Shown one piece after another: positions 4,208 through 58,701 of a stretch of DNA of 64,000 nucleotides (position 1 is the first letter of the stretch; each line of letters opens with the position of its first letter). The stretch comes from Dehalococcoidia bacterium (GTDB lineage Bacteria; Chloroflexota; Dehalococcoidia; Lucifugimonadales; Lucifugimonadaceae). Below the pieces are notes generated by a model that had not been told where the DNA came from, made no database searches, and worked only from the letters and a program-made list of their open reading frames with translations. The translations under genes were made by a program, and so were the position numbers. The stretch covers positions 1,366,837 to 1,430,836 of the forward strand of contig OZ240225.1 in NCBI GenBank assembly GCA_965197765.1, in the 5' to 3' direction.

Positions 4208-4328
4208 TTCACGAACTCAACAGATTGCAGGAACCGGCGAATGCGAAGCGAGACGGCGGGCCCGGTCGGTGACCGGACGTCGCCGTCTTTCGCATTTCAA
4301 TCTCGCGATTTAGCCGCAACTATCGGCG

Positions 4329-27748: not shown

Positions 27749-30700
27749 TTACGCAGGGCTTCGTCGGACGGCGATGATCGCGCCAGATGTAAACACTGCT
27801 GTGCCCGCTAAGGCAAGGAGGAGCAGTAAAGTCTCCATCGGCGCGAACCCGCCGGTGCCGGGAAGGGCTTCGTCGTCAGTTTCTGGAGTTTCTGGAGTTT
27901 CGGGGATTGGTTCTTCGGGTGCGCCGACGGTGCCTACGGCGACTCGCGCGGGTAGAGTAGAGATTGCGCCGCAGGCCAAAACCTGCGTGTCGCTCAGCTT
28001 GACGGTGGTTGCCAGTACCGTAAGACCGCGTACATCGTCGGAGGCGGCTACGACGACATCGGCGATTTTGGTCCGGATTTCGTCGGGTAAAGGCAGGCAG
28101 ACGCTGACAGGTTCTTGTAGCGCGTAGGTCGATATGCGTTGGCCTGCTGCGTTGACGACGCTGATCGCGTAGGCTGACCCGCCGAGGGTGTACCGGTGCC
28201 AAGTCATACCCGCGTTCGAAGCGGCGCCTGAAGGTGCGACGCTGATGCCGATGAACTCGCCGTTCGTGACGGCGCCGGGCCCCGCGGAGAGCGAATACCC
28301 TTCCCCTGTGAATGTGCCGCCTTCCTCGGGGGTAAACACTGCGTAGGCAGTTCCCTCGGAGTCGGTCAGCACTTCTGGGATATCTCCCTGCGGGTTAACC
28401 GGCACGCGTCTTTCAGGTGCAGCGGCTGAGCGCCGTCTGACCGTCACATTGATGGTGGCGCTGCAACGCGCCTGTTGGTCTTCGATAGATTCGTCGGAAC
28501 CGGCCCCTTGGCAAGTTCCAGCTTTCTCGAGCGACGCCGTGACTGCGAATTGGCCAGCCGTTGCGGGCGCGGTGAATACTACCTCGCGGTCGTCGGCTTC
28601 GCCGTTGCGCCATTGTTGTCGGATGTCTGCTTCTGACAGTGAGCCGGCCTGCGCGCGCCATGTGAACGCAGGTCGCCCCTCGTCCGGAGCGCGGTCGGCA
28701 AGATTGTTGTCGAACAGGCCTTGGCGACCGTAGACGTCGACGGAGAGCCGGACGGTATCGCCTTCGCTGACGGTCAACGAGGTGATCGATGGCTCGATTC
28801 TCAGGATACGGGAGAAGGCGCCACCGCCCCGGACGGTGCCGGACGGCGGTGCTGGTCCGGTTTTGAAGAATGCTCTGGCGGTAAGCTCCGAGTCAAAACC
28901 TTGGGCCAACGATGCTTGAACTTCGTACACCGTATCGGGGATTAGGTCGGTCGCGTCCAATGTCACGGAAGTTGCATCACCTGACAAAGTGGCGATTTGG
29001 CTTTCGCTCCATTCGTCCGAATCTGCTTGCCGATAGCGCATGTACACCTTTGACCCCGGTGTTGCGTCTGCGACCTCGATTATGACGGGCGCGCTTTGGG
29101 ACAAGATGTTTCCGAATCCTACTGCGGAGATGCAAATGCCTTCCCTCGGCGTCCCGGTCACATCTTCGGACCAGAGCGGATTTCCGCCAGCGTCCATCGC
29201 GTCACCGTCGCGGTTGGTTGCCAAAATCCTGAAGGCGTATGTCGTCCCGTTAACCAGCGAGCTGAGTGTAAACATCTGCGTTGAGGACCGTGTGATGTGC
29301 TCGCGTGGCGGAGCCGCCATGTCATCATAATCCTCTTGCCCAGATTTCCACTGGATTGTGTAATAAGTGATCGGGCTACCACCGTTGTCGACCGGCGCCA
29401 GCCAGCTGAGACGCAACGAGTTATCGCAGGCCGTGATTGCGGGGTTGGCCGATGCGCTTCGAGGTTCGGTGCTGGGTGTAGCCTTCAGTTCGGTGGGAGT
29501 TCCGTTGCCGAATTGTTGGTTGTTTGCGAAGACTTGGACCATATACTCGGTGCCGTTCGTCAAACCGTCGATCACAACGGATCTGCCCGTAGCATCGGTC
29601 GTCTTCTGTCTCGAACTGGAGTAAGATTCGTTCCCCGATTTCCACTGCACGGTGTACCGCGTGATCGGGAAACCGCCGGCGTTAGGTGCCATCCAATTGA
29701 CTGTGAGTTGTCGGTCGCCGTGTTCGATATTCACGTCCGGCGCGAGGGGTGCCGACCGCCTAGTGGTGAACGTCATTCCGAACCCTATCTCCGCAGGTCC
29801 TTCGATAAATGCACGAACGAAATACCGCGTGTTGCCGAGAAGCCCGGTAAGATCGAAATCGAATATCGCGCCCGACGATGGCTCCGAAGTCAAAACGTTG
29901 ACATCATCGGTTCCCGACGCGGAGTATTCCAGGCGAATCGTAAGTGGGGTGGCGTCGACGTTGGCAAGTTGAACCCTCAATTTCGCGGTGGTCTGGGTTG
30001 TCTCGAGTGTCGTGACCATGTCGATGCTCGGCCCTTCGACGGGCGTTGCGGTTGCTTCGCCCACGGCGCCTTGACCGTATTCGTTTTCTGCTTGCACTTC
30101 GACGCGGTATGGTATTTCGTTCTCCAAGCTTGAGATCAGGGATGTCGTGGCGTCGAGATTCAAGGCCACAAGATCTGCAGCGACGCCTGTGTTGACGTTC
30201 GTCCACTTAATGGTCAGGACCGTTATCGGAGACCCTCTATCGTCGACCGTCCAATTCACCCGCAAACGTTCGTGGCCGGGGATGATCGAGACGACCGGTG
30301 CTGCGGGGACATCGTCAGTGTCGAACGAGGTCGAAGCCACACCGGCATCAAAGTTTTCGCTGAGCGACGCCTCCACATCGTAGGTGACGCCTTGAGTCAA
30401 ACCGGTCAGGGCGAAAGTCACCTCCAATTGATTCGGGTTCGCATCTTGACTCACCGGTAGTGGGAACACCGTGTCGGATGACTGCTTGTGCCGCAGGTAG
30501 ATCGGGGTGGTGCCAAGCGGCAGATCGACGGTGGTGACCTTCACCACCGCTTCCACGTTCGTGATCGTCTCGGGATCTATGGATACGTCACTTACCATCG
30601 GTATAGCCATGGGAGTACCCATAAACTCGGTCGACTGTGTTTCGCCGTGGGGCGCAACGGCGACTACGGCATAGGTGTACCGTCTACCGTTCTCGAGGCC

Positions 30701-31369
30701 GGTGATCGTGTGCTCGCGTGCGTCGCGCGGTTTCAAGACCTCGCGACTGGGGCTGAACTGCTGATCGCCAGACTTCCAGCGGACTTTGAAACCTGTCAGC
30801 GCCGAATCGCCTATGTCAAGGCCATCGAAGTAGGAGCCGGGCGGCAGGAACCAGGTGATGGTTAGAGATCCATCGCCTTCGTCGGGCGACAGTAATGTGG
30901 GCGGGTCCGGGTTCGCGGCCGTATAGAACGTCTCCTGTCGCACGTTTTGGAACCCGGCGTCCAATGAGAATTCGATTTCGTACTCGGAATCTTCGGTGAG
31001 TCCGCTCAAGTCGAAAGTCGCCTTGTTGCCAGCGGTAGTTTGCGACGGCGCCGCATTCCAACTTCCCGCGTCCGGCGGCGTCCGAAAGCGCGCGTAAACC
31101 GTCACGCTAGCCCCTTGGGGGTTGGCGAACTCGATTTCGACTCGCGCGGTCGTTTTCATGACGTTGGTGAAAACGACCGTCGCTTGCGTCAACGTGGCGG
31201 CCTGGGCGTCGGCGGGCGCAGCAACGAATAGCGCCAAGAGCGTTGCCGCCAGAGCTACCAGCGAAACCAGCACCAACGGTTTTCTGGTCGAAGATCGTAA
31301 TTTCGCAGATTCGCGCACGCTTGAACTCGACGAACCTTCGACGGCACTATTCAAGGTTCCACTTACCAT
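27749..31369 (-). CDS. LPXTG-anchored cell-wall protein with many fibronectin type III-like domains
   Basis: Signal peptide ...LVALAATLLALFVAAPADAQA. At least 4 canonical FN3 units (e.g. LTVNWMAPNAGGFPITRYTVQWKSG...GLTNGTEYMVQVFA) alternate with a second FN3-like type. The C-terminus is PETPETPETDDEALPGTGG, a hydrophobic helix, then RRSPA. The start could be TTG 31402 or ATG 31369. Confidence 0.8.
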   Translation of the reverse strand: MVSGTLNSAVEGSSSSSVRESAKLRSSTRKPLVLVSLVALAATLLALFVAAPADAQAATLTQATVVFTNVMKTTARVEIEFANPQGASVTVYARFRTPPDAGSWNAAPSQTTAGNKATFDLSGLTEDSEYEIEFSLDAGFQNVRQETFYTAANPDPPTLLSPDEGDGSLTITWFLPPGSYFDGLDIGDSALTGFKVRWKSGDQQFSPSREVLKPRDAREHTITGLENGRRYTYAVVAVAPHGETQSTEFMGTPMAIPMVSDVSIDPETITNVEAVVKVTTVDLPLGTTPIYLRHKQSSDTVFPLPVSQDANPNQLEVTFALTGLTQGVTYDVEASLSENFDAGVASTSFDTDDVPAAPVVSIIPGHERLRVNWTVDDRGSPITVLTIKWTNVNTGVAADLVALNLDATTSLISSLENEIPYRVEVQAENEYGQGAVGEATATPVEGPSIDMVTTLETTQTTAKLRVQLANVDATPLTIRLEYSASGTDDVNVLTSEPSSGAIFDFDLTGLLGNTRYFVRAFIEGPAEIGFGMTFTTRRSAPLAPDVNIEHGDRQLTVNWMAPNAGGFPITRYTVQWKSGNESYSSSRQKTTDATGRSVVIDGLTNGTEYMVQVFANNQQFGNGTPTELKATPSTEPRSASANPAITACDNSLRLSWLAPVDNGGSPITYYTIQWKSGQEDYDDMAAPPREHITRSSTQMFTLSSLVNGTTYAFRILATNRDGDAMDAGGNPLWSEDVTGTPREGICISAVGFGNILSQSAPVIIEVADATPGSKVYMRYRQADSDEWSESQIATLSGDATSVTLDATDLIPDTVYEVQASLAQGFDSELTARAFFKTGPAPPSGTVRGGGAFSRILRIEPSITSLTVSEGDTVRLSVDVYGRQGLFDNNLADRAPDEGRPAFTWRAQAGSLSEADIRQQWRNGEADDREVVFTAPATAGQFAVTASLEKAGTCQGAGSDESIEDQQARCSATINVTVRRRSAAAPERRVPVNPQGDIPEVLTDSEGTAYAVFTPEEGGTFTGEGYSLSAGPGAVTNGEFIGISVAPSGAASNAGMTWHRYTLGGSAYAISVVNAAGQRISTYALQEPVSVCLPLPDEIRTKIADVVVAASDDVRGLTVLATTVKLSDTQVLACGAISTLPARVAVGTVGAPEEPIPETPETPETDDEALPGTGGFAPMETLLLLLALAGTAVFTSGAIIAVRRSPA

Positions 31370-31412
31370 CCGATTCGCAATTACACGCCAAACGATAATC
31401 AACGATATTCGT

Positions 31413-31472
31413 TTTGGTAAGTGTCAAATCACACTCATTTAGGACGAAAACTGTTTGCTCTAAAAGAGAGTG
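31413..31472 (-). promoter_or_regulatory. Copy A of recurring upstream motif (CACYCTC-N4-AGAGCAAAC ... GAGTGTGATTTGACACTTACCAAA)
   Basis: Lies 44 nt upstream of the FN3 gene ATG and is co-oriented with it. Nearly identical to the 3' half of copy B (50165..50228). Confidence 0.5.
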
Positions 31473-31683
31473 ACTTTGCAACTTCGCCGGTGTAAACGCC
31501 CGTGCAGACACAACCGATGTGGGCTCGATTAGCGTCGACCGCGGGCAAAAAAGATGGCGAAGGCGTGGTTTACGCCAGGCCCGACGACCGGTTGCTGAAT
31601 CGTGGTCGGCGGCCCCGTGAATGCAGTTCGCGACAACCGGGGGTCATAGTCAGTGCCATCACCATCCGATATAGCCCGCGTGG

Positions 31684-32340
31684 TCAGTCATCCAGCAGAC
31701 CGCTACGCACGGCCCAGACCACGATCTCCTGCTTCGATTCGACGCCCAGCTTCACCTGTATGTTGTAGACGGCGTTTCGGATGGTGACCGGCTTGACTCC
31801 CCGGTCCGCCGCGATCGTCTTGTACGGCTTGCCACGACAGAACGAAATCAGTATCTCCCGTTCTCTCTTGGTCAGCGCGTCTGGCTCGTTTCCCAATCCC
31901 GCCCCGCTGCGTATCCCGGCGAAGACTCGCCTCACCACCTCGGTCGGCAGAGGCATCTCGTCCGAAGCCACGACCCTGACTGTGTTCAGGAGCCGATCCA
32001 TCCCTGACACCTTCTGAAGGTAAGCGGTCGCACCGGCGGCCACCGCCTCTACGACGGCGTCCTCCTCCGTCGAGGACGTAAGCATTATCACCCTCGTGTC
32101 GGACCGGGTCTCGATGATCTCCCGGCACGCATCTACGCCGTCCATTCCGGGCATCAAGACGTCCATGACGATCACGTCGGGCGACAATTCGGCGGCGGCT
32201 TTCACGGCCTCCTCGCCGTCCTTGGCGTGCCCCACCACCTCGAACTCCCCGGACTGCTCCAACATCACATGAAGGCCTTGCCGCACGATCGAATGATCGT
32301 CTGCGAGCAGCACCTTTGTCCTTCGATCCCGTTTCGACAT
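31684..32340 (-). CDS. Response regulator, NarL/FixJ (LuxR-type HTH) family
   Basis: REC domain (VLLADDHSIVRQGL...VIVMDVLMPGMDG) plus LuxR HTH (LTKREREIL...KTIAADRGVKPVTIRNAVYNIQVKLGV). Confidence 0.9.
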   Translation of the reverse strand: MSKRDRRTKVLLADDHSIVRQGLHVMLEQSGEFEVVGHAKDGEEAVKAAAELSPDVIVMDVLMPGMDGVDACREIIETRSDTRVIMLTSSTEEDAVVEAVAAGATAYLQKVSGMDRLLNTVRVVASDEMPLPTEVVRRVFAGIRSGAGLGNEPDALTKREREILISFCRGKPYKTIAADRGVKPVTIRNAVYNIQVKLGVESKQEIVVWAVRSGLLDD

Positions 32341-32341
32341 C

Positions 32342-33517
32342 CTATCGTTCCTTTCTTACACGGTCGATGGGCACGACGCAGGTCACGCACGCCCCCCCGT
32401 CCGGTCCCCGGGGCTCGACGTCAAGGCGTCCGCCCAATCGCTCGGCGTGCGCCCGCATGTTGGTGAAGCCGTGGCCTTTCTCCTCGTAGCCGTCGGGGAG
32501 TCCCGCCCCGTCGTCCGACACCGACAGTCTGAGTTCATGCGGTCCGAAGTCGAGTCCGACCTGCACTTTGCTCGCCCCGGCATGTCGGAAAGCGTTGGCG
32601 AGAGCGTTGTGCGCTATGGCGAACAGCAGGCTTCTGGCCTCGATCGGAAGCGGCGGCTCGGTCCCGTTCTGGGTCAGCATCGCCGACACCGCCGTCACGG
32701 ACGTGAACGTCGCGACGTGCGAGTTCAGGGTCCGGCCCAGCTCCCGACCTTCGAATATGCGGCCCATGTCCACCAGGTGCCTCAAATCCCAGATGGCGGT
32801 CTTCGACAGCAGCGACGTCGTTTCCAGTCTGGCTGCGAGCTCCTTGTTGGAGTCTCCAGCCACCTCCTTCGCCGCGTCGATGCCCAAACCGATCATGTAC
32901 GCTGACTGAGACGCCGTGTCATGAATGGCCTGCGACAGCTCGATCCGTTCCCGTTGCAGCTCTCCTTCTCTTGCCATCGCCGCTCTTGCCCGTCGCCGCT
33001 GGAACCGGGTTATGAAGTTAATCGCGAGGACTACCCCGAACATCGCGACCACCCTAGAAAAAAGCATCTTCTCATTTATTCCGTCGAAAGCCATGCCCGA
33101 GCCGACGGTCAAGCTCACGCCGCCGTAAATGCCGGCGGTCATCGTAGTCCAGGTGAGATTCAACAGGACGGAGGTGAAAACGGCGGCAAAAGCGGCGAGG
33201 GCGGGATAGTAAGGAAGGAACAGGAAAGTGTCGAACCCCCCATCGACGACGACGCTGGCCGTGATCAGAGTTATGTCCATGGCACTCAGGACAAGCAGGT
33301 GGCGCCATGTCACCCTGCGCCGAGTGATCAGACGGTAGTGCACGTAGCCGTTGAGTGCAACAAGCGGCACGTGCATGAGCATGAACGGAATGTATTTAGC
33401 ATACGTGAACGCTGGCCGATAGACGAGTTCGATCACGGCGCCGACCCAGAACAGCCAGCGTATCCACACCGTGATTTTTGCAGCGTACGATGCCTCGTCC
33501 GGATCGAGCCAGAACAT
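32342..33517 (-). CDS. Membrane sensor histidine kinase (HisKA_3 / NarX-type)
   Basis: About 6 TM segments, then the H-box AIHDTASQS and an HATPase region (NALANAFRHAGA...DDGAGLP...GHGFTNM). Stop abuts the RR start. Start placed at Met54 of the track ORF; uncertain. Confidence 0.8.
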   Translation of the reverse strand: MFWLDPDEASYAAKITVWIRWLFWVGAVIELVYRPAFTYAKYIPFMLMHVPLVALNGYVHYRLITRRRVTWRHLLVLSAMDITLITASVVVDGGFDTFLFLPYYPALAAFAAVFTSVLLNLTWTTMTAGIYGGVSLTVGSGMAFDGINEKMLFSRVVAMFGVVLAINFITRFQRRRARAAMAREGELQRERIELSQAIHDTASQSAYMIGLGIDAAKEVAGDSNKELAARLETTSLLSKTAIWDLRHLVDMGRIFEGRELGRTLNSHVATFTSVTAVSAMLTQNGTEPPLPIEARSLLFAIAHNALANAFRHAGASKVQVGLDFGPHELRLSVSDDGAGLPDGYEEKGHGFTNMRAHAERLGGRLDVEPRGPDGGACVTCVVPIDRVRKER

Positions 33518-33804
33518 CTGCAGGACCCGCGTCTGTATTGCACCGAACGCTACCTTCACCGAATACCGACCCCTACTCCAACACGCGATCCGACATGGGT
33601 GCGAGGCGACGCCACAGACTGTACAGATGAGAAACGTCCGTCGGTGGAACTGGCTCGCCCTCAGCCTTGGCGTCACCCGTTATATCAGCCCTGCTGACAC
33701 CGGAACTGGATCGCCAGGCATGAAGGTCGACGGCCTGCAGCCCGACGAGCTGCGAGTCTGCTTGTACCGTTCGGTAGGAATCCTCGCCTGATGCGACATG
33801 TGGA

Positions 33805-35013
33805 CGGTCTGCCTGTCGATAGGGTCGTACGTGCGGCGTGTGCATGACCCCAATCTACCCCCCGCCTGTTGTGCACGCAAGAGCACTTTATACCTGTCAT
33901 ATGGACATAAACACCCTCTACGAGAGCAAACAATTCGCGGCACCAAGAGTGGGTCTGGCACTTGTCGATTCGATGAATAGTCGTTGTTTTTTCATGTGCA
34001 AACCGAACTGCCGATGAGCGGGTTATCAGACTGACACGTCAAGGGCGGGAGCCGATTGACACGGCCAATCCATTCCGAAGAGTCGTCAATGCGGCATTCT
34101 GCTCGACGTGGAAATATGCTGAAGCGATAATCAAGGCTCGATGCGTAATATGTGAAGCCCGTAAGGTCATGGCTTTGAAGCCGACATGAACCCGTCGCGA
34201 CCTTCAATGTGCGCTGGACTTGAACTTCAATTTGACTTGACCTAATCCTTTACCAGCAATTGCGAAGACGACATGTATGTCCCTGAGGTCTTCACTATGA
34301 TCCCGACCTATGCGCCAAGCATCCGCGGGCGTTTGTGATTCGTCGGACGCGCCGCCGAGCCAGCAATTGAACGGCTGATTCACAGTATTTTCTTCGAGAG
34401 CACGTTTTACCTCTCGAAATTGCAAAACACTCTCTTTAAGATCAAACGTTTTGAATCAGCAAATATGTTTCTTGGTACTTTCCGAGACGACCTCTGGTCT
34501 TTACGATTTAAGCCTTATGACGCATCAGGTGGAGATCTAGGCCCATGCCGCGCAACTATAGGATGGACGGAAACCGTGTCTGTCGGCCCGAAATCGGCGA
34601 GCAGATGGCGGAGGTTTCGACCCCGCATCGGAACATCGCGAATACAAACGCGACAGATGCTGTGTCGGCGCCGTGGCCGCTGGGGCCGCTGTCCATCGGT
34701 GTTGCGGCAGCTGTCGCGACGACCGCGCCCACCGGCGGCACGCCCATCGGCGATTACGGAAAACCGACGCATCTGTGGTATCGGTCCCGGAACGTCTCCA
34801 AACACCTGTCAACCGTTCGTAAGCCGTTTCGCAGTTCGGCGCTCGAACCAGCAGATGCAGGTGCCCAACGCGCCTGCCTGTTCGCACAACCAACTGCTGT
34901 GGAGCTCAAAACGCCAATTGCGCGCGAGAACAGACATTCCGGCAAGGGTAAAAAACCGAGAAAAAGCATCACGACGAGAAATCGGATCGTCGGACAAGTG
35001 AAACCGATTAATT
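33805..35013 (+). repeat. Leader block copy 1 (about 1.2 kb, duplicated at 57159..58357)
   Basis: Colinear by eye with copy 2, roughly 85-90 % identity with small indels and several perfectly conserved stretches, e.g. a 68-nt run GGCATTCTGCTCGACGTGGAAATATGCTGAAGCGATAATCAAGGCTCGATGCGTAATATGTGAAGCCC. Ends 50 nt before the first giant ORF. Confidence 0.85.
34204..34425 (-). CDS. Small ORF inside leader copy 1 (73 aa), unknown function
   Basis: Open in copy 1 (…VKRALEENTVNQPFNCWLGGASDESQTPADAWRIGRD...HVVFAIAGKGLGQVKLKFKSSAH). The colinear frame in copy 2 keeps register but has three in-frame stops. Confidence 0.3.
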   Translation of the reverse strand: MQFREVKRALEENTVNQPFNCWLGGASDESQTPADAWRIGRDHSEDLRDIHVVFAIAGKGLGQVKLKFKSSAH

Positions 35014-35063
35014 GATCGAGACCTCGGTCGTCGCCGCGACATCGTAGCGAAGGACCTTAACTG

Positions 35064-38000
35064 ATGAAGATTTTCCGACGTTTCGACGCGCTCCTGCTTA
35101 TCGCCTTTGCGATCGGGCTGACGGCCGTCGCCGTCCTGCCGCTCATCCCCTGGGTCGTCGACGCCCAGACGACGAACCAGTCCGCCACCGGCCGGCCCAG
35201 GGTCCTGGCTGCCGCGCAAGGCGCAAGCATCCTGTTCGCCGACACTGAGGGCATCAACGACGGGAACGGACTCTCCTTTGAAGAAATCGCTACTAATGCT
35301 CCCATCAGGTTCAACTGGTCCTACCAGTGGATCCGGGTCGACGGCGACTCCGAGACGAACGTGGGCGCCGACTCGGCCAGTTACCATCCTGTCCAAGCCG
35401 ATGTCGGCAAGCGGATCAAGGTGAAAGTCTCGTTCACGGACGGGGCCAACTACTCGGAGTCTCGGACCAGCCTGCCGTTCGGCCCGATCGCCGAAGTGGT
35501 CGGCACGACGCAGCTCCCGTTCGTGCTGGTCACCAACAGAGAAGAGGGTACATTAACCACGGCGAACATCACCCAGCAGTACGCCATCGGCTTCAAGCTG
35601 GGAGATCACGGCCGGGGCTATGAAATCTCCAGCGTCATCATCGGCCTCGCCGCGGCCCCGTCCAGTCTGACCGTCTCCCTGTGGAGCGGCGGCCATTCAG
35701 AGGCCTTTCAATCCAATAACGCGAGCAAGCTATTCGACTTTGCCAACCCGGCCTCCTTCGCCGTCGGCAACAACGAGTTCACGGCCCCGGCGGGCGCGTT
35801 CGCGTACCAGAACTTCAACTACTTCGTCGTGCTGTCGGGTTTCGGCTCCTCCCTGTCCATCCTGGAGACGTCGGACAACGAGGAGGGGGACGAAGGCGTG
35901 TCGGGGGCCATCATCTACGACGATGCGGCCGTCCGGGATTTGACCGCCACTGGACGATGGGCAATTTCCGAAGATCGCACCAGCGTGTTGGAACTGACCG
36001 TCATGGGCTCGAAGCGAGGTCACGGCATCATAGCTTCGAACTATGCCCAACCCTTCATCGACGATAAGGGCACTGTTGACACTATGGACGACACGGGTGG
36101 TGACCAAGAGATCGTATCGGTGGGCGACACGGGCGGTATCGGGATCGAACTCGGAGCAGCGGACCGCTACCTCATCCGCGGTGTTTCCTTCAACTCGGAC
36201 GACACAACACCAAGTAACGGCGGCTTTACCAACCCGTTCTCCCTGCGCTCGGGTACCTTGACGGGCGCCAAGCAGTTCAGCCTGGTCAATACACGTAACG
36301 TACCCGGCCTGCCGGTTTGGACGGCTCCGCGAGGTGCAACCGTGGCAGGAGGGTGCACTACGAGCATGGGTGTGGAGACATGCAAAAAATACGTCTTCGA
36401 CCAGATGGGCAATATTGGCTCTGATACTGGCGACGTAAAGAAACGGAGACGAATTAGCATCTTAACCCGCTATTCAAGCGCCGAATCCGACGGCGTTGAC
36501 AGCCCGGCGGCGGCGGGCGTGAGCTTCACCGGCGCAACAGATGATATAGAAGCAGACGACCCGTACATGGCCCTTCTCGGCGAGCCGCTCCACGCGATGG
36601 TGCAGAACCTGGGCCAGGCCGACGACGGTTACCGTTCCGTCGGCGGCGCCAACAGAAAGGTGTTGTCGCAGGGCTTCACGACCGGCTCCAACGTGTCCTT
36701 GCTGCAGGGCATCGGCGTCAACATCGAAGGCTCCGGCAGCAGCTTCCCTGACGGGCCGACCTCCGTGTCGGTTGCCGTGCACGCCGATTCGGGCGGGAAG
36801 CCGGGCGCAAAGCTCTTCGACCTCGTCAGTCCCGACGAGTTCGCGGCCGGCCACAGCTTCTTCGAGGCGCCACCGGGAACGACTCTGGCGCCCAACACCT
36901 CTTATGTGGTGGCGTGGAGGCATATCGGCGGCACTGTGCACAGGATGCGGAAGACCTCGAGCAACGGCGAGGACACGGGCGCGCTGTCAGGCTTCAGCTT
37001 GGCGAACACGTTCTATCAGGGCGTCGACCTTGACAACATGGCAGCGGACCCGGGCAGCGATGTGTTGGAGATCGCGGTATACAGAAGCAGGAAAGTGCCC
37101 AACGCCACCGGCCGGCCGAGAGTCTTGGCTTCCCCGGAAGGCACCGGAATTCTGTTCGCCGACCCTGCGCGCATCAAGGATACCGACGGGCTGCCCTTCG
37201 CGTTCGACGGCCCGACCATGAGTGTGGTCCGGCTTCGCCTGTACTATTACCAGTGGATCCGGGTTGACGCCGAGACCGCTGCGGAGACCCTCGTCGGTGT
37301 CGACTCGCCGAGCTACCAGCGTGTCGACGCCGATGTCGGGCACCTGATGAAGGTGCGGGTGTCGTTCTTCGACCAGGCCGGCGCCTTTGAGAGTTTGACC
37401 AGCCTGCCGTTCGGCCCGGTTCACGGAAGACCGGCGCTGCTGCGGGAGTCGACGCTGGTCGCCAACACGGGCCAGTCTGCGTCGGCCGAGGAGGAGATCA
37501 CCGGGCAGTACGCCATGGGGTTCCGGCTGGGCGGTCACGGCCAAGGCTACGAGATCTCCAGCGTCTCAATCGATCTGGCCGCGGCGCCGTCGAGCCTGAC
37601 CGTGTCGCTGTGGGCCGGCGGCCGTGAAGGGATGCCAGGCAGCGATCGCACGAGTTACAAGCTGTTCGACTTCGCGAACCCGTCGTCCTTTCGGGTGGGG
37701 CTGAACGAATTCACGGCTCCCGGAGGGGCATTCGCGTACCAGAACGTCAACTACTACATCGTGCTGTCGGGTTTCGGCGCCTCGCTAAAGATCAAAGAGA
37801 CGACGTCTAACAATGAGGATTCGGGCGGCGAGACGGGAGCCGTCATCTTCGACAGCGCGAGAACCCGGGGGTTGCATTTGACCGGAGTCTGGCGCAGTTC
37901 CACCTCGCGCAGCAGCGTGCTGCGAATGGCCGTGAAGGGCTCGCAGCGCGAGCGCGGCATCCTTATCGCGAACTACGCCCAGGCCGCCAAAGATGAATTG

Positions 38001-40181
38001 GGAGCCACGAACCAAGAAATCGTCTCGGTTGGCGATTTGACCACTGTCGAGATCGATGTCGGAGAGGCGGATCGCTACCTCGTCCGCGGTGTTTCGTTCC
38101 AAGGGGACGGCACAAATACCGTTCCGGCCTTTCCTTCACAACTGGGCGTTTCATCAACAGCCGGCCCAATGGGCGATCCGATGTACCTGTGGAACACAAG
38201 CTCGCGTACTGATTCGGAAATAACCAAGGCCGCCGCTCTGTTCAGCATGGCCACCACGCGCTCCTATGCAGGCATAAGTGTGTGGACGGCTCCGCAGGGC
38301 TCGACCGTGGCGGGAGCAAGCGCGTCATACTTCGTCGGGCAGCGTCCTACCGATCCGAGACTGTTCTCCGTCCTTGGCCGCTTTTATACGACCGAGGTCG
38401 CTGGCGTGGACATGCCAACGGCGGAGGGTGTGGCCTTCGCTACCGACGCAACCGTTGGGGACGGGGCGTGGGGAGACGGCAGACCGCTGATGGCCGTCCT
38501 CGGCGAGCCGCTCGACGCGATGGTGCAGAACTTTGACCAGACCACCAACAGCTACGCCAGTGCCACTGCCACCAACCCGGTGTTGTCGCAGGGCTTCACG
38601 ACCGGCTCCAACGACTTCCCGTACCGGCTGCAGGGCATCGGCTTCGAGATCGAAGGCTCCGGCTCCGAGATACCTGACGGTCCGACCTCTGTGTCGGTGG
38701 CGGTGTACACCGCCGACACGGACGGGAAGCCGGGCGAGAAGCTGTTCGACCTGGCCAGCCCCGCCGACTACGCGGTGGGCCACAGCTTCTTCGAGGCGCC
38801 GCCGCGAGCATACCTGGAGCCGGACACCCCCTACGTGGTGGTCTGGACCCGCCTCGGCGGCACCGCGCACAGGTTGGAGCGAACCACCAGCAACAGCGAG
38901 GACACGGGCGCGGCAACGGGCGCCAGCCTTGCGGACGTCTTATACCGGGGCGCCGACGTGAACAACCTGTCCCCGAACTCAGGCGGCAACTCGTTGGCGC
39001 TGGTGGTGTACACCGAGGTCTTGGACACGGCTATCTTCGTGGAGGGCGGTATCCCGGTGCCCCTGAACTGGTTCCACATATCGGACGGCGCCTATGCGGG
39101 GTACCAGTTCAGGGCGCTCTTCGTCACACATCACGCAATAAACGCCGAACACAATGACATAGAGATCTACAACAAACTTGTCCAGCTCGAAGCCTCTGGC
39201 CGGCCTAAACGGTATCCAGAAGCATCTGGGCGCTCCAACGATCCAGTCATTCGGCGAGTCGCCGAGCAGTTCAAGGCGGTGGTCTGCACCGCGGCGGACA
39301 AAAACGCGCGAACGAACACCGGGATGGAGGGCAGCGGCGTGCCGATCCACTGGCTGGACGGCGGCGCGCAGCATCGCGACACGCTGGTAGCCAACTCGAA
39401 CTCCCAGTTCTTCGGCCCCGAGTGGGTCCAAGACGAATGGGGCGCCATCGTCACCGGGAACTCCACCCCCTTGTTCGAGATCTCCGTGGACGAGGCTACC
39501 AGGGGCGACAAGATCGCGGAGGGGATCTGGACCGGGTGCGACTCCACAGGAATGGCGCATATGGATTACCACTTGGGTTCGGCCATGGGGATGGCCACCC
39601 TGGGCACGCCGGCAGATGAGAGCACCGGCAATGCTCCGATTGGCCCCACCGCTTCCAGTACGGGCATGGTCGCCCTCCCAGTGGGCGAATACCGGTCGAT
39701 CTACGCGATCTCGCCCGTCTTCACGGTGGTTGACGACGGCTCGGAGCGTACCATCTGGTCGTCGAGGATGACGGTGGGAACAAACACGTTTGCCAGTGCA
39801 ACAATCACGGAGGTAACCACCGGATACGTCGACTTAATTAGTGTCGGCAGCATCGAGGGGTCAAAGCAATTCACCTACGAGGGCGGGACCTACTCTGTGG
39901 TTCGTCTCCGCATCCTTAAGGAAACGACGTCAGGCACCGTCTCAATGAACTTCGTAAACCTGGGAATGTCTTCGCTGCCGCCGGAGGGAACCGACTCGAA
40001 GCTAGCCCTCGAGCTCACCTGCTGGGGAAGCTGCCGCGGCGAGCAGCAAGGCTCACAGCGAACGCGTTTTCTCCTGTCGGAAGCAACACGCGTCGGTAAC
40101 GGTTACTCCTGGGACAACCCCGGCCTGCCCTGGGCCGACGGCGACGAAGTTGTGATCAGGCTCATCGAGCTGCGGGATTGA
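35064..40181 (+). CDS. Giant secreted mosaic protein A (1705 aa)
   Basis: Signal peptide MKIFRRFDALLLIAFAIGLTAVAVLPLIPWVVDAQT. A 640-aa unit is duplicated in tandem (A41 and A681 both start ATGRPRVL...); each unit holds one YQW-type Ig-like repeat and two QxFTTG-type modules. C-terminal part: an FRALFVT... domain and an MTV...WADGDEVVIRLI module. Confidence 0.85.
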   Translation: MKIFRRFDALLLIAFAIGLTAVAVLPLIPWVVDAQTTNQSATGRPRVLAAAQGASILFADTEGINDGNGLSFEEIATNAPIRFNWSYQWIRVDGDSETNVGADSASYHPVQADVGKRIKVKVSFTDGANYSESRTSLPFGPIAEVVGTTQLPFVLVTNREEGTLTTANITQQYAIGFKLGDHGRGYEISSVIIGLAAAPSSLTVSLWSGGHSEAFQSNNASKLFDFANPASFAVGNNEFTAPAGAFAYQNFNYFVVLSGFGSSLSILETSDNEEGDEGVSGAIIYDDAAVRDLTATGRWAISEDRTSVLELTVMGSKRGHGIIASNYAQPFIDDKGTVDTMDDTGGDQEIVSVGDTGGIGIELGAADRYLIRGVSFNSDDTTPSNGGFTNPFSLRSGTLTGAKQFSLVNTRNVPGLPVWTAPRGATVAGGCTTSMGVETCKKYVFDQMGNIGSDTGDVKKRRRISILTRYSSAESDGVDSPAAAGVSFTGATDDIEADDPYMALLGEPLHAMVQNLGQADDGYRSVGGANRKVLSQGFTTGSNVSLLQGIGVNIEGSGSSFPDGPTSVSVAVHADSGGKPGAKLFDLVSPDEFAAGHSFFEAPPGTTLAPNTSYVVAWRHIGGTVHRMRKTSSNGEDTGALSGFSLANTFYQGVDLDNMAADPGSDVLEIAVYRSRKVPNATGRPRVLASPEGTGILFADPARIKDTDGLPFAFDGPTMSVVRLRLYYYQWIRVDAETAAETLVGVDSPSYQRVDADVGHLMKVRVSFFDQAGAFESLTSLPFGPVHGRPALLRESTLVANTGQSASAEEEITGQYAMGFRLGGHGQGYEISSVSIDLAAAPSSLTVSLWAGGREGMPGSDRTSYKLFDFANPSSFRVGLNEFTAPGGAFAYQNVNYYIVLSGFGASLKIKETTSNNEDSGGETGAVIFDSARTRGLHLTGVWRSSTSRSSVLRMAVKGSQRERGILIANYAQAAKDELGATNQEIVSVGDLTTVEIDVGEADRYLVRGVSFQGDGTNTVPAFPSQLGVSSTAGPMGDPMYLWNTSSRTDSEITKAAALFSMATTRSYAGISVWTAPQGSTVAGASASYFVGQRPTDPRLFSVLGRFYTTEVAGVDMPTAEGVAFATDATVGDGAWGDGRPLMAVLGEPLDAMVQNFDQTTNSYASATATNPVLSQGFTTGSNDFPYRLQGIGFEIEGSGSEIPDGPTSVSVAVYTADTDGKPGEKLFDLASPADYAVGHSFFEAPPRAYLEPDTPYVVVWTRLGGTAHRLERTTSNSEDTGAATGASLADVLYRGADVNNLSPNSGGNSLALVVYTEVLDTAIFVEGGIPVPLNWFHISDGAYAGYQFRALFVTHHAINAEHNDIEIYNKLVQLEASGRPKRYPEASGRSNDPVIRRVAEQFKAVVCTAADKNARTNTGMEGSGVPIHWLDGGAQHRDTLVANSNSQFFGPEWVQDEWGAIVTGNSTPLFEISVDEATRGDKIAEGIWTGCDSTGMAHMDYHLGSAMGMATLGTPADESTGNAPIGPTASSTGMVALPVGEYRSIYAISPVFTVVDDGSERTIWSSRMTVGTNTFASATITEVTTGYVDLISVGSIEGSKQFTYEGGTYSVVRLRILKETTSGTVSMNFVNLGMSSLPPEGTDSKLALELTCWGSCRGEQQGSQRTRFLLSEATRVGNGYSWDNPGLPWADGDEVVIRLIELRD

Positions 40182-50017: not shown

Positions 50018-50164
50018 AGCGGGAAGTCAATCGCTCCGTCTTACTGGCAACAAGAAATGCCCGCATATGCGAATGGCCGGAGGCCAGCGGTCTCTCCCGG
50101 TCCGGATACGTCCCGGTGGCGTGTGCCTGACTTTCGTTTGTGTCGGCAATAGCGAAAAGCCGCA

Positions 50165-50228
50165 GAAACACTCTCCCTCAGAGCAAACAAATTGTCGCCC
50201 CCAAGAGTGTGATTTGACACTTACCAAA
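50165..50228 (+). promoter_or_regulatory. Copy B of recurring upstream motif
   Basis: GAAACACTCTCCCTCAGAGCAAACAAATTGTCGCCCCCAAGAGTGTGATTTGACACTTACCAAA, about 300 nt upstream of giant ORF D and co-oriented with it. Confidence 0.5.
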
Positions 50229-50529
50229 GCCTTGAAGAGTCTCTACAGTTTTCATGGGTTGATGCGTAAGAAGAATCACCAGATAACCGGAATCACAGGC
50301 CGCCGCTCTACGTGCGGACAGCGGAGGAGGTCGTAGGCCCCGCTCATCCCGCCCGTGCAGAGGGAGGCATTCATTTGGCGCTCGACAGACCGGTCCATGC
50401 ACCTGAGGCGGCGGACAGCCCCCGCCGTCGCGGCTCCGGTCGCTCTGGGGTCAGCCGCGCACGGCGACCTAGCACAGATGTCCCCCGGGTTTATCGATTC
50501 TTCGTGCTGGGTAGAAAAAGGGTGGTGCC

Positions 50530-53500: not shown

Positions 53501-55572
53501 CGGCGGACGTTTCCGGCATTGTAGATGCCGACGGGCTGACCAACGTTTCGTACACTTATCAGTGGATTGCCAACGATGGGACCACCGACACGGACATACC
53601 GGGAGCGACCAGCTCCACCTACACACTGTCCGACGACGATGTGGGCAAGACCATCAAGCTGCGGGTGAGCTTCACCGACGACGCCAACAACAGCGAGACC
53701 CTGACCAGCGATGCGACGGCGACGGTGCCGACGACGGACGAGTGGTGGGCGGATATGTTGGTGGTGGATTACGGCACCGGCGCCATCGGCGCCGCCAGCG
53801 CCGATCTCTTTTCGAACTCCGGGGGCAACGCTGGCCTTCAGGCAAAGTGGCTGTGGTTCTACTCTCCGGAGCGGAAGCTTCGCTTGGCTTTTACGGATAA
53901 CGTTCCCAACGTCAACGACCTGACGCTGCTAGTTGGCGATGTCGCGCTGGCATTACAGGGAGGGGATGCCACCTTTACCTGGGAAGACGTCGACGTCGAT
54001 TGGGAGGACGGTCAGACCCTTACGGCGCGCATCGTACGTGATTGGACGAGTGCGGTCGTCGCCCTCAACAGCCCGGCCACTGGGTTGCCGACCATCATTG
54101 GCACGGCCCAGGCGGGCGAGACGCTGACAGCGGACGTTTCCGGCGTCAACGATGAGGACGGGCTGACCAGCGTCTCCTACAGCTACCAGTGGATTGCCAA
54201 CGACAGGACCACCGACACGGACATCCAGGACGCCACGGACTCCACCTACACACTGACCGACGACGACGCAGGCAAGACCATCAAGGTGCGGGTGTCCTTC
54301 ACCGACGACGCTGACCACGAGGAGACGCTGACCAGCGCGGCGACGGCGGCGGTTGCGGCCAAGCCCAACACCCCCGCGGCAGGAGCGCCGACCATCACCG
54401 GGACGGCCCAGGTGGGCGAGACGCTGACGGCGGACGTTTCTAGCATCGCCGACTCCGACGGGTTGACCAACGTGTCGTACAGCTACCAGTGGATCGCCAG
54501 AGGATCGGACATCGACGGGGCCACCGGCTCGACCTACGAACTTACCAGCAGTGAGCAGGGTCAGACCATCCAGGTCCGGGTGACGTTCACCGACGACGCT
54601 GACCACGAGGAGACGCTGACCAGCGGGGCCACGTCGGCGGTTGCGGCCAAGCCCAACTCTCCGGCCCTGGGCGCGCCGACCATCGGCGGGACGCCCCAGG
54701 TGGGCGAGACGCTGACGGCGGACACCTCCGGCATATCGGACGACGACGGGTTGATCAACGTTTCCTACAGCTACCAGTGGACCGCCGGAGGATCGGACAT
54801 CGCCGGGGCCACCGGCTCTACCCACACCCTGACTGCCAGCGAGCAGGGACAGACCATCCAGGTGCGGGTGACCTTCACCGACGACGCCGAAAACGCCGAG
54901 ACGCTGACCAGCGGGGCCACGTCGGCGGTTGCGGCCAAGCCCAACTCTCCGGCCACGGGAGCGCCCACCATCGGCGGGACGCCCCAGGTGGGCGAGACGC
55001 TGACGGCGGACACCTCCGGCATATCGGACGACGATGGGCTGACCAACGTTTCCTACAGCTACCAGTGGACCGCCGGAGGGTCGGACATCTCGGGGGCCAC
55101 CGGCTCCAGCTACACCCTCAAGGGCGTGCAGAAAGGGCAGACAATCCAAGTCCGGGTCTCCTTCCGTGACGACGCAGACCACGAGGAGACGCAGACCAGC
55201 GCGGCGACGGGGGTGGTTGCGGCCAAGCCCACGCCGCTGACCGTCCGCCTGGTGTTCCCCGTGGCCGGCCATCACGGCGCCTCGAATGTCTTCACATTCG
55301 ACATCCGGTTCAGCGAGGAGATTCCCCTCAGCTACAAGACCCTCAAATTCCACGCCTTCGACGTGACAGGCGGGACCATCTTGAGGTCGCAACGAATGAA
55401 CAAGCCAAGCAACATCAAGTGGCGAATAATGGTGAGGCCAGACTCCAGCGAGGACGTGACGATCGAACTGCCGTCAACCACGGACTGCAACGCCGTTGGG
55501 GCCATCTGCACGGAGGACGGCAGAATGCTGTCCAACAGTCTGGTGTTCACCGTCAGTGGTTCGAGCGGATAG
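50530..55572 (+). CDS. Giant secreted mosaic protein D (1680 aa) with PEP-utilizer swivel-like and PPDK_N/ATP-grasp-like region
   Basis: Signal MTLPSRRAPLTLLILPGLLALFALYLVIPWSTASAQQ. DVDGDCTDD Ca-type motif, RVAGIITTVPQTPLSHVNLRA (phosphohistidine swivel-like) and FGVKAANV...RYRSSTNNEDLPGFSGAGLYDS...ASLWNFRAF...MEIEFK (PPDK_N-like). Then 3 YQW repeats, an MTV...WEDGQTLTARIV module, 4 YQW repeats and the C-terminal Cys module. Confidence 0.85.
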   Translation: MTLPSRRAPLTLLILPGLLALFALYLVIPWSTASAQQASQEDTCPGADSAPTPTVVEVRAVPIVVESTTDEYFVLYVRHDLDADTTFEVPVGVTLGQDGATTLTESPEALPKERYRVEKYLVSDPADVDGDCTDDITELADPVGMNPVNPVPAMRFDDGAAAIPNRETYMSLAYKGDSGIDSHLRNLEAVKFHMVDMNTDRPSVYFMNTKTYRRHYDFSAAVGLEVNPLHGHETMIAEMVYHPTAVAPDGSLGVYRFQFGANDVYSFKEISYAFTVLAASMPLLEDNLAYYPMWSKAVARYHKDQSLYDDSRVDVLLAEDIAFDLDFISLNRGRGFGFLRVMALEERPNPRDIVIYDALPNELPRVAGIITTVPQTPLSHVNLRAVQDGVPNAFVRDALEAPDIEGLIGSYVQYLVGSTAYFVFAASPSEVDTHYADSRPSEPQTPERDLTVTEITPLSDIEFDDWNAFGVKAANVAVLGTLDFPENTVPDGYAVPFYFYDEFMKHNGFYDDVKELLADPNFQSDFDTQESKLKKLRKKIKKGETPEWMTGALEEMHAGFPAGTSLRYRSSTNNEDLPGFSGAGLYDSKTQHPDETEEDGIAKSLKQVYASLWNFRAFTEREFYRVDHLAAAMGVLVHPNYSDELANGVAVSFDPIRMRYGNYYVNSQLGEDLVTNPDAHSAPEEILLHQGGEYTVLATSNQMQQGQLLMSDAQMDQLRRHLELIHDEFAELYGVEADEPFAMEIEFKITSDDVLSIKQARPWVFGDDAPSENRPPTGAPTISGTAQVDETLTADISGITDADGLTSVSYSYQWIANDASADTDISGQTGSTYTLSDADVGKTISVRVSFTDDRGYEETLTSAATTAVTGPNSPATGAPTISGTAQVGETLTADVSGIVDADGLTSVSFSYQWIANDASADTDISGQTGSTYTLVSADVGKTIKLRVSFTDDADHEETQTSAATTAVTGPNSPATGAPTISGTAQVGETLTADVSGIVDADGLTNVSYTYQWIANDGTTDTDIPGATSSTYTLSDDDVGKTIKLRVSFTDDANNSETLTSDATATVPTTDEWWADMLVVDYGTGAIGAASADLFSNSGGNAGLQAKWLWFYSPERKLRLAFTDNVPNVNDLTLLVGDVALALQGGDATFTWEDVDVDWEDGQTLTARIVRDWTSAVVALNSPATGLPTIIGTAQAGETLTADVSGVNDEDGLTSVSYSYQWIANDRTTDTDIQDATDSTYTLTDDDAGKTIKVRVSFTDDADHEETLTSAATAAVAAKPNTPAAGAPTITGTAQVGETLTADVSSIADSDGLTNVSYSYQWIARGSDIDGATGSTYELTSSEQGQTIQVRVTFTDDADHEETLTSGATSAVAAKPNSPALGAPTIGGTPQVGETLTADTSGISDDDGLINVSYSYQWTAGGSDIAGATGSTHTLTASEQGQTIQVRVTFTDDAENAETLTSGATSAVAAKPNSPATGAPTIGGTPQVGETLTADTSGISDDDGLTNVSYSYQWTAGGSDISGATGSSYTLKGVQKGQTIQVRVSFRDDADHEETQTSAATGVVAAKPTPLTVRLVFPVAGHHGASNVFTFDIRFSEEIPLSYKTLKFHAFDVTGGTILRSQRMNKPSNIKWRIMVRPDSSEDVTIELPSTTDCNAVGAICTEDGRMLSNSLVFTVSGSSG

Positions 55573-55676
55573 AGCGGGAAGTCAATCGCTCCGTCTTACT
55601 GGCAACAATCGATGCCCATCGTTCAAATCATAAAAACATGTCCCGTACCCCGATACGGGATCAAAATTCAGACGTT

Positions 55677-55704
55677 TTGACAACCAGCACATCCGTGCTA
55701 CAAT
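55677..55704 (+). promoter_or_regulatory. Near-consensus sigma70-type promoter (TTGACA-16 nt-TGcTACAAT)
   Basis: TTGACA at 55677-55682, 16-nt spacer, extended -10 TGc then TACAAT at 55699-55704. No convincing ORF follows. Confidence 0.45.
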
Positions 55705-56898
55705 GAAACATGAACCAGTTCGAGACAGCGCCGCGCTGACGAGCGCGGACCCCCCTGAGCCAAGCGGCCAACGGAGATTGTGTCAAGACCGTGAATCCGA
55801 CGACAGACAAGAAACGCGACGCCGCGCCTCCCAAAGAGGCGCCCGGCTCCGCTTCCCTGCGCCGAAACGGTCTTTGGCGACGCACCGCACCAGATCCAGA
55901 GTCGGGTGAAAGACCGCTTGCGTACGTAAGAAGCGAATCCTCAAACAAGTCCCGGTCGCGGCGCAGCATTGATGCGTCGCAGCACGAGCCAGACGTCGGT
56001 CAACCGACGTCAAAGGGCCGGGTAAGCGTTCGTGAATGCGGCAGACGTCTACCCTCGATCGCCACGAGGGGGAGGCTACAGAGCGGGCCCGGGAGGAACC
56101 GGGCTATGGAGGGCGGCGCGACTCTAGTTCCATCGCCGACCTCAGACCCGTCGGTCTGGCGACGGCGGGCGCGGCTGGCACGGGTAGCTAGCGGTCACGC
56201 ATCTCCAAGCGCGGCGACTGTCCACCCGCCCTGCAAACCTCCGCCTGCAGCGGAGGCCGTGGCAGGCCGGAGGTTCCCGGACATCCGGGAACGGGCAGGG
56301 TTTCCATCGCGAAACCCATCGACCCCATCTTCCGGGCGCGGGCGATAACCTCGACCGGTCCTTCATAAAGGGGAAGGATCGGAACGAGCCGCCCAAGCCC
56401 GACGACCAGACAAAAATCTGCGACCTCAACCCGCAGATCAACTAAACACACCCCAACCGCCAGCAACTTAATGGCTCAGCAGCAAACGCCCCTTTCGCAA
56501 GGCGAAAGGGGCGCGAGCCAGCGGAGCGCCGCGAGCGGGGTATGCCCCGGGGCGCCGAGGGGCCGCGCACCAGCCAAACCATCCACACCCCGATCATTCC
56601 CGCGGACGCGGGCGCTTCAGCGGACGGAACGTCCATCCAGAATCAACAAAACACTCCGCTTCTCGCCATCCCAGCGACATCCACTGTCCTTTCGCTCCGC
56701 GAAGGGGACGCGAGCAGGCGAAGTGCCGCTCCCAATCTTCGAGGCCGGTAGGCGCGTTGTCGCGCTTGTTGTCCCAGCTTGAATGTCGATGCTGGACAGA
56801 GCGGCACTTCGGAAGTGGTAGTCTTCGCTAGGGATCATACGCCGGATCAGTCGATTAGCCGAGTTCGATTGGGTTTAGAGAAATCAAAAGGGGCATGA

Positions 56899-57000
56899 AG
56901 CCCTGACGAGGAACGATATAAACCCGGTGCGGTCTGCACCTCCGACGGCCGGAAGCTGTCCGACGGCGTTGGGATCACGGTTTCGGGGCCGGGCGGGTAG
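56899..57000 (+). pseudogene. 3'-terminal remnant of a giant-protein C-terminal module
   Basis: Translates ...KPGAVCTSDGRKLSDGVGITVSGPGG*, colinear with GAICTADGRKLSDSLNFTVSGPGQE* of protein B. An in-frame stop lies 9 codons upstream of the homologous part. Confidence 0.6.
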
Positions 57001-57130
57001 ATCCGATGCGGGAGATGTTCAACGAAATCCGGGCCGAAGCGATACGGAAACCAAACAGACGAATTGAGCGGGTGCGAAATGCACAGGAATGAGATGGAAT
57101 TGCACGTGCACCGATCGGAACGACCGACGC

Positions 57131-57162
57131 GGTCGGCGGAAGCCGCAGGCGCGTGGTCGGTC
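57131..57162 (+). repeat. 32-nt perfect direct repeat, copy 1 (partner at 58598..58629)
   Basis: GGTCGGCGGAAGCCGCAGGCGCGTGGTCGGTC occurs identically at both positions and brackets leader copy 2. Confidence 0.85.
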
Positions 57163-58357: not shown

Positions 58358-58597
58358 TGCGAGACGGTCGACCTGCGAGCGTGGCTCCAACCATGTCAGA
58401 AGCCGCGTCCGCAGCAACGAGCCTGTCGAATTCCGCTCCCAGGATCGAACCGGGTCGCTCGCGTCGAAATCTTGGAGCAGAAAAATCGAAAGTTGTGGCG
58501 TTGGGCAAGCAGGTTCTCAACGGCACACGCCCGGCCAGTTCAGATCCCTACGCGACTGATCCCGGATTCCGACGTCGTATTCCCCTGTCCGGAGCAA

Positions 58598-58629
58598 GGT
58601 CGGCGGAAGCCGCAGGCGCGTGGTCGGTC
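58598..58629 (+). repeat. 32-nt perfect direct repeat, copy 2
   Basis: Identical to 57131..57162. The following about 30 nt weakly resemble the start of the leader block again. Confidence 0.85.
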
Positions 58630-58701
58630 CTGACGGTCCCTCGGCGCGTCGCAATTGCAGCGACGGATCGAGGTATAACCGTGGCGAATAGCAACCTGAG
58701 A

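Follow-up and report, generated by a model that had tools for sequence, protein, structure and literature searches.

A duplicated 1.2-kb block before giant-gene operons of uncultured Dehalococcoidia, a candidate promoter/leader region

What is a 1.2-kb stretch of DNA with no convincing gene in it doing, twice over, in front of operons of giant genes? The question is raised by 64,000 nt from a Dehalococcoidia bacterium (assembly GCA_965197765.1, contig OZ240225.1, positions 1,366,837 to 1,430,836 of the forward strand), a stretch that we call the window and whose own numbering is used throughout. One copy of the block (copy A, 33798-35013, + strand) lies between a divergent histidine kinase gene and giant gene A (35064-40181, + strand), which encodes 1705 aa and leads the operon A-B-C. 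The other (copy B, 57151-58357, + strand) lies 5′ of giant gene E (58702-64000, + strand), whose start was placed by sequence reading and which continues past the window end; the gene E orthologue in the related locus L006 encodes 2766 aa with FN3 domains. The answer that we favour, with real reservations, is that a promoter/leader region of giant surface-protein operons was expanded and duplicated in this lineage of uncultured Dehalococcoidia (Chloroflexota), and that the block is the result.

Two copies of a block without a convincing coding frame

Pairwise alignment and 50-column sliding identity show that copies A and B are colinear and ~86% identical, differing by 159 substitutions and by indels of 2, 5, 1, 15 and 2 nt. 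Beyond the block, identity is 38-50% on the left side and <30% on the right. A repeat finder recovered the block independently, in pieces (families D11, D13, D15, D18 and D20), and, given its length and identity, a chance match is impossible. An earlier note on this DNA had described two colinear 1.2-kb copies with three perfectly conserved stretches; the alignment, the sliding identity and the repeat finder bear out the former, and all three stretches are present in both copies. An exact run shared by the copies, within 34085-34152, is 68 nt long. From the end of copy A to the ATG of gene A (35064) there are 50 nt, and from that of copy B to the ATG of gene E (58702) there are 344 nt. The block consists of a lead-in of 35 nt, module 1, spacer 1 (34000-34395), module 2 and spacer 2 (34516-35013).

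The same note saw no convincing coding frame, and three results agree with it. There are 8-16 stops per frame in each copy, in all six frames; the ratio of synonymous to non-synonymous differences between A and B is 21-39 to 85-104, about 1:3-4, in all six frames; and the A/B mismatches have no codon periodicity. Six-frame translations of the block gave no match to Pfam or NCBIfam (best E = 0.28), the frames of spacer 1 being compared with profile libraries only. An open reading frame (ORF) of 156 aa in the 3′ half of the block found, among 5.8e9 proteins, only itself, copy B and four clade copies (six entries on five contigs, with only two ORF variants from the source contig), and it is frameshifted in L001. 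For a second ORF, of 193 aa, an exhaustive HMMER search gave one clade copy as the sole match among 1.84e9 representatives. A protein-coding gene or pseudogene was therefore rejected: there is no synonymous excess and no periodicity, stops occur throughout, and no known protein family is matched.

The module, its distribution and the proposed control

Each copy of the block contains an internal direct repeat of ~56 nt, the core of which is the motif AAACACYCTC-N4-AGAGCAAAC. The 64 kb contain this motif six times, where 0.01 occurrences are expected: two in each block copy, one 5′ of giant gene D (50166) and one, on the minus strand, 5′ of a giant gene with FN3 domains (31453). All six are oriented toward a giant gene. 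The motif is part of a module of 130-190 nt with the pattern ...GCAAGAGC..AAAAGTTGCAGAAACACYCTC-N4-AGAGCAAACA-N~12-CCAAGAGTGTGATTnGGCACTTACC-N17-TAnnGT, whose boxes include AAACACYCTC-N4-AGAGCAAAC and AGAGTGTGATTnGGCAC.

A module profile made from 26 instances in related loci and run over the window with nhmmer gave exactly six significant matches in the 64 kb. Copy A contains the distal module A1 (33833-33999, + strand, E = 4.7e-20), with the motif AAACACCCTCTACGAGAGCAAAC at 33909-33931, and the proximal, more diverged module A2 (34396-34515, profile match 34396-34491, + strand, E = 8.2e-07). Their counterparts in copy B are B1 (57178-57351, + strand, E = 8.5e-27) and B2 (57748-57873, + strand, E = 7.3e-14). 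The remaining two are the canonical module 5′ of giant gene D (50110-50286, + strand, E = 1.6e-48), in which the motif is present, and the module 5′ of the FN3 giant gene (27749-31402, minus strand), at 31409-31533 on the minus strand (E = 1.2e-18).

In the 26 module instances TTACCA and TAnnGT stand at a constant spacing of 17 nt and make up a weak sigma-70-like pair, under the threshold of our consensus scan. A2 and B2 retain TAnnnT, in the forms TTTCCG-17 nt-TACGAT and TTTCCG-17 nt-TAAAGT, respectively; A1 and B1 lack its A, and A1 is without the TAnnGT element that the 26 related instances retain. The TGGCAC of the module resembles the -24 element of a sigma-54 promoter; this candidate was rejected, as the GC of the -12 element is absent at the required spacing.

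How widely is the module distributed? A scan of 185,579 species genomes (one per species) with the exact pattern of the motif gave 28 loci, of which 25 are in metagenome-assembled genomes of Dehalococcoidia/Chloroflexota, with up to four per genome. In most of these related loci an ORF of 500 to >3000 aa begins ~260-400 nt 3′ of the motif. In all 25, the matches to the block are limited to its module parts.

The window encodes a two-component system on the minus strand (31684-33559), assigned with Pfam: a HisKA_3 histidine kinase (32342-33559; 405 aa, a gene length set from homologues) and a response regulator with receiver and GerE/LuxR domains (31684-32340). Copy A sits between gene A and this divergent kinase/regulator operon, and the FN3 gene beyond the operon also has a module. 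A homologue of the kinase (53-82% identity) is found within 16 of the 25 related loci, which had been selected by the DNA motif alone and not by the kinase; in 13 it is directly adjacent, on the opposite strand, with its start 150-710 nt from the motif. Module A1 lies 350 nt from the kinase start, the canonical position. The two marks of an operator set, a motif recurring before operons and synteny with a regulator, are thus present across the six window modules and the 25 related loci. Given the synteny of module and kinase, we are proposing the two-component regulator as the candidate factor acting on the module.

The control that we envisage would have as its functional core the clade-wide module of 130-190 nt, placed before large genes and typically facing a divergent pair of HisKA_3 kinase and LuxR-type regulator. 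The canonical layout of the clade is module, standard leader of ~300 nt and gene; before genes A and E it has given way to module 1, a private spacer of 400 nt, module 2 and a private spacer of ~500 nt. The module would be a promoter with operator sites, to which the adjacent response regulator would bind, and transcription would start near module 2, giving predicted 5′ untranslated regions (UTRs) of ~550 nt for gene A and ~830 nt for gene E. Since the unit is present twice, the same control sequences precede operons A-B-C and E; the two operons are probably under one two-component control, and gene conversion keeps the two copies alike. We infer that most of the spacer sequence matters little for function, a few short sites such as 34037-34068 excepted. 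Among the three readings offered by the earlier note, that of a multi-site regulatory region comes closest and is supported in part, by the two clade-wide modules in each copy and an invariant island of 32 nt. Most of the length is weakly constrained.

The standard leader deserves a description of its own. It occupies most of the interval between motif and ORF in the relatives, follows the module 5′ of many giant genes there (L002, L008, L013, L016, L019, L020, L023, L029, L030, L032, L034 and others), and is 65-89% identical in them to the gene-D leader (50231-50514, + strand), with a nearly invariant core, GGCATTCACATGGCGCTCGACAGACCGGTCCATGCACCTGAGACGGCGGACGGAACGACGGCC. RNAalifold gave -9.3 kcal/mol for it, with no covariation and no convincing consensus structure, and on this result a structured RNA in the standard leader was rejected. 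Within the window it is present only 5′ of gene D. A derivation of the spacers from the standard leader was likewise rejected, as nhmmer with a leader profile gave no match in the block.

Two of the relatives have the AAACACYCTC-N4-AGAGCAAAC box in tandem, ~45 nt apart (L020, ~4172-4309; L022, ~2878-3109). Duplication internal to the module is therefore recurrent in the clade.

Change in the block and other accounts of it

Outside the window the block was found in L001 and L005 (orthologues of copy A, 95-97%), in L006 (on the kinase side, 89% to A) and in L007 and L037 (orthologues of copy B, 94-97%). Close relatives are present in the ENA assemblies ERZ25067264, ERZ25071058 and ERZ25072076. 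A related metagenome-assembled genome bears the name 'APA_bin_2' and the gene repertoire is eukaryote-like, which hints at a possible sponge symbiont as the source. The earlier note would have been shaken by a lack of conservation beyond the pair; the block does occur outside the pair, but in close relatives only. An exact search with block-specific conserved islands gave 0 matches in species-representative genomes, JGI metagenomes and viral contigs. In L002-L004, whose kinase is ~83% identical, the module is followed by a standard leader of ~360 nt and the 1.2-kb block is absent.

The two spacers, ~0.9 kb in total, are private to the clade. Spacer 1 (34000-34395, + strand) has no match in the 25 related module loci and contains a conserved island, 34020-34150. 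Spacer 2 (34516-35013, + strand) has a variable right end, and its ORFs have no homologues outside the clade. Within the island of spacer 1 lies a 32-nt run, CGTCAAGGGCGGGAGCCGATTGACACGGCCAA (34037-34068, + strand), that is invariant in all six copies compared; by our calculation such a run is expected ~3e-4 times given 64.6% invariant columns. Judged by eye, it resembles the module core GATT-GACAC...CCAA.

As a whole, the block changes about neutrally (the spacers at about the synonymous rate), apart from a few short sites under constraint. The block core of L006 is 0.89 identical to that of the window, against 0.83 at the four-fold-degenerate sites of the kinase gene and 0.95 at those of the regulator gene. 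Conservation is no higher in the modules than in the spacers. Indels of some size are tolerated: L001 and L005 are without 106 nt of spacer 1, L007 is without 31 nt of module 1, and 15 nt separates A-type from B-type copies.

Gene conversion between copies A and B homogenises them. The two copies, 23 kb apart and of mosaic identity, show concerted evolution and REARRANGEMENT. At the sites that distinguish A from B, L001 follows A except in 34686-34834, where 18 of 19 sites follow B; in its sister L005 this interval follows A. Part of the long identical runs is explained by this conversion.

Several of these results weigh against a promoter/leader region. There are invariant stretches outside the modules (34037-34068, parts of 34085-34152, and 34835-34855). 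The -35 and -10 matches to consensus are weak, 4/6 and 3/6, under the scan threshold; module 1 is without the invariant A of the -10-like element, and it is in module 2, the proposed active promoter, that the block is conserved least (A-B identity 0.78). Since the motif loci were gathered with an exact pattern, ascertainment accounts for part of the apparent invariance. Finally, four-fold sites serve only imperfectly as a neutral yardstick, and the kinase and regulator genes disagree.

The rival with most in its favour is that the block is rearrangement debris, made of partial tandem duplications of the module and captured or decayed DNA, one copy of which was pasted before gene E; the modules would not be active, and unique proximal DNA would drive genes A and E. 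The near-neutral rate, with modules conserved no better than spacers, and the loss from module 1 of the conserved TA of the -10-like element are what such an account would lead one to expect. So is the right end of the block, which varies in three ways: it lies at 35013/58357 in the window, at the equivalent of 34886 in L006, and at the equivalent of 58259 in L007 and L037.

The surroundings of copy B speak for debris as well. Copy B, together with 240 nt extra, lies between direct repeats of its insertion site. Here these are perfect repeats of 32 nt, the left at 57131-57162 and the right at 58598-58629 (both + strand), the latter at 73 nt from the start of gene E; in L037 and L007 the one on the right is a diverged copy, ~237 nt long and with ~78% identity, of the whole left flank. 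That flank, ~180 nt before module B1, includes 70 nt left over from a giant-gene 3′ end (56926-56994), which share 66-76% identity with the ends of genes B, C and D, so a giant gene formerly ended there. The arrangement suggests that gene E already had an upstream region when copy B was inserted into it.

Against this, all four modules are still recognisable (E from 1e-7 to 1e-27) across lineages that differ by 11-16%, the 32-nt island is invariant in six copies, module A1 keeps the canonical 350 nt from the kinase start, and the consensus scan found no other promoter-like site in the 50 nt before gene A. We regard debris as unlikely, though it is to be taken seriously. The earlier note had allowed for a decayed segment, mobile or genic, that duplication carried along. 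Such an origin is not shown for the block, which has no protein similarity and no terminal inverted repeats; the two spacers, which are clade-private and about neutral, may have one.

Could the block instead be transcribed as a long structured 5′ UTR, or as a separate large non-coding RNA (ncRNA), whose fold controls the giant operons, for example through attenuation, stability or recruitment of a protein? In favour are its length, conservation and non-coding nature right before very long operons, and the invariance of some of its runs in six copies. Minimum free energy (MFE) z-scores were calculated in 150-nt windows on both strands of both copies, and all are at least -1.9 save one, a minus-strand window of copy A starting at 34150 with z = -2.95, for which copy B gives +0.26. 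The segment 34550-34800 is mildly negative on the plus strand in both copies (-1.4 to -1.9), which is in favour of a structure; the best-conserved island has positive z-scores, which is not.

The evolutionary tests tell against a fold. For the most promising segment, RNAalifold on the six copies gave a covariation term of +2.1 (penalising), with 1 compensatory pair in 88 and many broken pairs, the power of this test being limited by the 83-97% identity of the six copies. Substitutions are not depleted at MFE-paired positions (Fisher test, odds ratio 0.82-0.86, p = 0.36 and 0.46). The tolerance of 106-, 31- and 15-nt indels, the near-neutral rate and the relatives that retain genes and module without the block all point the same way. 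In the window, Rfam 15 gave only tRNAs at gathering score, and at E<=1 there is no match in 33600-35100 or 55500-58800; a known RNA family was accordingly rejected, the models of OLE, GOLLD, ROOL and HEARO being among those that do not match. With weak z-scores, no covariation, no avoidance of pairs and no Rfam match, the long structured 5′ UTR or ncRNA of the earlier note is not supported, and with three tests negative we rejected a structured RNA for the block; we would put its chances as low.

That these negatives do not come from a failure of method follows from a neighbouring element, which was positive in the same tests. The segment 55705-56450, on the + strand between gene D and leader copy B, looks like a candidate new structured RNA gene of ~750 nt. 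It is preceded at 55677-55704 by a near-consensus promoter, TTGACA-16 nt-TACAAT with a TG extension. Its MFE z-scores are -5.4 (plus strand) and -4.2 (minus strand), with single windows at -3 to -4.7, and it contains many perfect hairpins of 7-12 bp; there is no Rfam match at E<=1. The element, 0.85-0.9 kb, also occurs in L036, L038 and L039, in a different context after PhyH genes, with 91.5-93.6% identity. In its core, runs of >100 nt are identical in five sequences, whereas the flanks are unalignable. Variable columns are spared from the pairs, 20 of 476 paired columns varying against 46 of 260 unpaired (p = 3e-9, to be set beside the p = 0.36-0.46 of the block).

Two further observations concern the surroundings of this element. 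A repeated unit of ~110 nt, built around the perfect 12-bp hairpin CGCCCCTTTCGC/GCGAAAGGGGCG, lies directly after the candidate RNA in the window (56476-56596), with a shorter copy ~200 nt on (56688-56729); in the PhyH-context loci it lies 5′ of the element (L036, 5515-5622 and 5730-5830; L038/L039, 5491-5588 and 5698-5801). Terminator-like hairpins at 55641-55660 and 56415-56439 have their T-runs on the minus strand, a hint of minus-strand transcription that ends on either side of the candidate RNA region.

A related account does without a global fold. The kilobase extension may be a lineage-specific transcribed leader acting via short sites, for instance 34037-34068 and 34835-34855; we give this, too, only a slim chance. 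If it were true, short leader sites could bring in a factor for elongation or antitermination, or a regulator that binds RNA, as needed to express giant operons of 15-25 kb, and the duplication would have wired a second operon into the same short-site leader control.

The two direct copies might also serve as substrates of recombination, by which giant-gene cassettes behind the kinase-linked promoter would be deleted, exchanged or re-addressed, with surface variation as the outcome. The attraction of this idea comes from L006 (8975-10728), where regulator, kinase and leader, up to the equivalent of 34886, are followed by the gene E-proximal region (from window 58485) and the gene E orthologue. 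Some 23.6 kb (genes A-D and copy B) is absent there between two leader positions, so the leader copies mark the ends of a presence/absence difference of that size, and gene conversion between the copies is documented. But a single rearrangement was seen, and the L006 difference could have arisen when recombination between the copies deleted the stretch or, equally, through an insertion in the window lineage. Its junction is not a clean A/B crossover, ~260 nt more being missing; direct repeats lead to irreversible deletion and not to switching; and Pfam scans of the window ORFs gave no recombinase gene nearby. We hold this role to be very improbable.

The remaining candidates can be dismissed briefly. 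An insertion sequence or miniature inverted-repeat transposable element was rejected: the block ends carry no inverted repeats, Pfam/NCBIfam six-frame scans of the block gave no transposase domain, and the source contig gave only two ORF variants. The perfect 32-nt direct repeat flanking copy B (~237 nt in L037/L007) far exceeds the target-site duplications that transposases make, and copy A has none. A plasmid or phage origin was rejected, with no blastn match to the block in plasmid and phage collections. A template/variable repeat pair of a diversity-generating retroelement was rejected because the A/B mismatches have no adenine bias: all four bases are affected (33-46 mismatches each; 93 transitions, 66 transversions). 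No reverse transcriptase domain came up when 28 window ORFs were scanned against Pfam.

Returning to the block as a duplicated and expanded promoter/leader region, what would follow from it? A duplicated, expanded upstream region is itself an ordinary kind of object, and most of what makes this one unusually long is nearly neutral sequence private to the clade; the module is a previously undescribed cis-regulatory element. Module and dedicated two-component system together would mark giant, repeat-rich surface-protein genes (LRR, FN3, Ig-like) across a Dehalococcoidia clade. The module would thus offer a sequence handle for finding the regulon in new genomes, for choosing metatranscriptomic targets and for approaching the control of the largest and costliest genes. 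The upstream regions of giant genes, for their part, evolve by module duplication, gene conversion and insertions and deletions on the scale of cassettes.

Comparison with known systems

Two-component regulons of the NarL/LuxR type share promoter/operator regions. The window resembles them in that its cis-element recurs before several operons and also next to the divergent operon of the regulator itself, and in that its regulator has receiver and GerE domains and its kinase HisKA_3. It differs in that the motif is not the NarL heptamer pair, and in that the module, at 130-190 nt, is unusually long and occurs twice in one 1.2-kb region.

Conserved leaders of very long surface-structure operons recruit NusG paralogues, as RfaH with ops/JUMPStart, UpxY in Bacteroides and LoaP illustrate. 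As in those systems, a conserved non-coding leader stands before operons of 5-25 kb for surface components, and the standard leader of ~300 nt in the relatives is common to paralogous giant genes. Unlike them, the window has no NusG-type domain in the 28 ORFs scanned with Pfam, and the 1.2-kb block is without the standard leader. With the large bacterial ncRNAs OLE, GOLLD, ROOL and HEARO the block has in common its kilobase scale, its non-coding nature and its conserved runs; it has neither an Rfam match nor a thermodynamic or evolutionary signal of structure.

Duplicated tuf genes and rRNA operons undergo concerted evolution through gene conversion. The block copies, 23 kb apart and mosaic, with a conversion tract in L001, behave similarly, except that what is converted is non-coding upstream DNA and not a gene. 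In its working, the block would be closest to the operator/promoter regions that a two-component regulon shares; in its evolution, it resembles paralogous segments homogenised by gene conversion.

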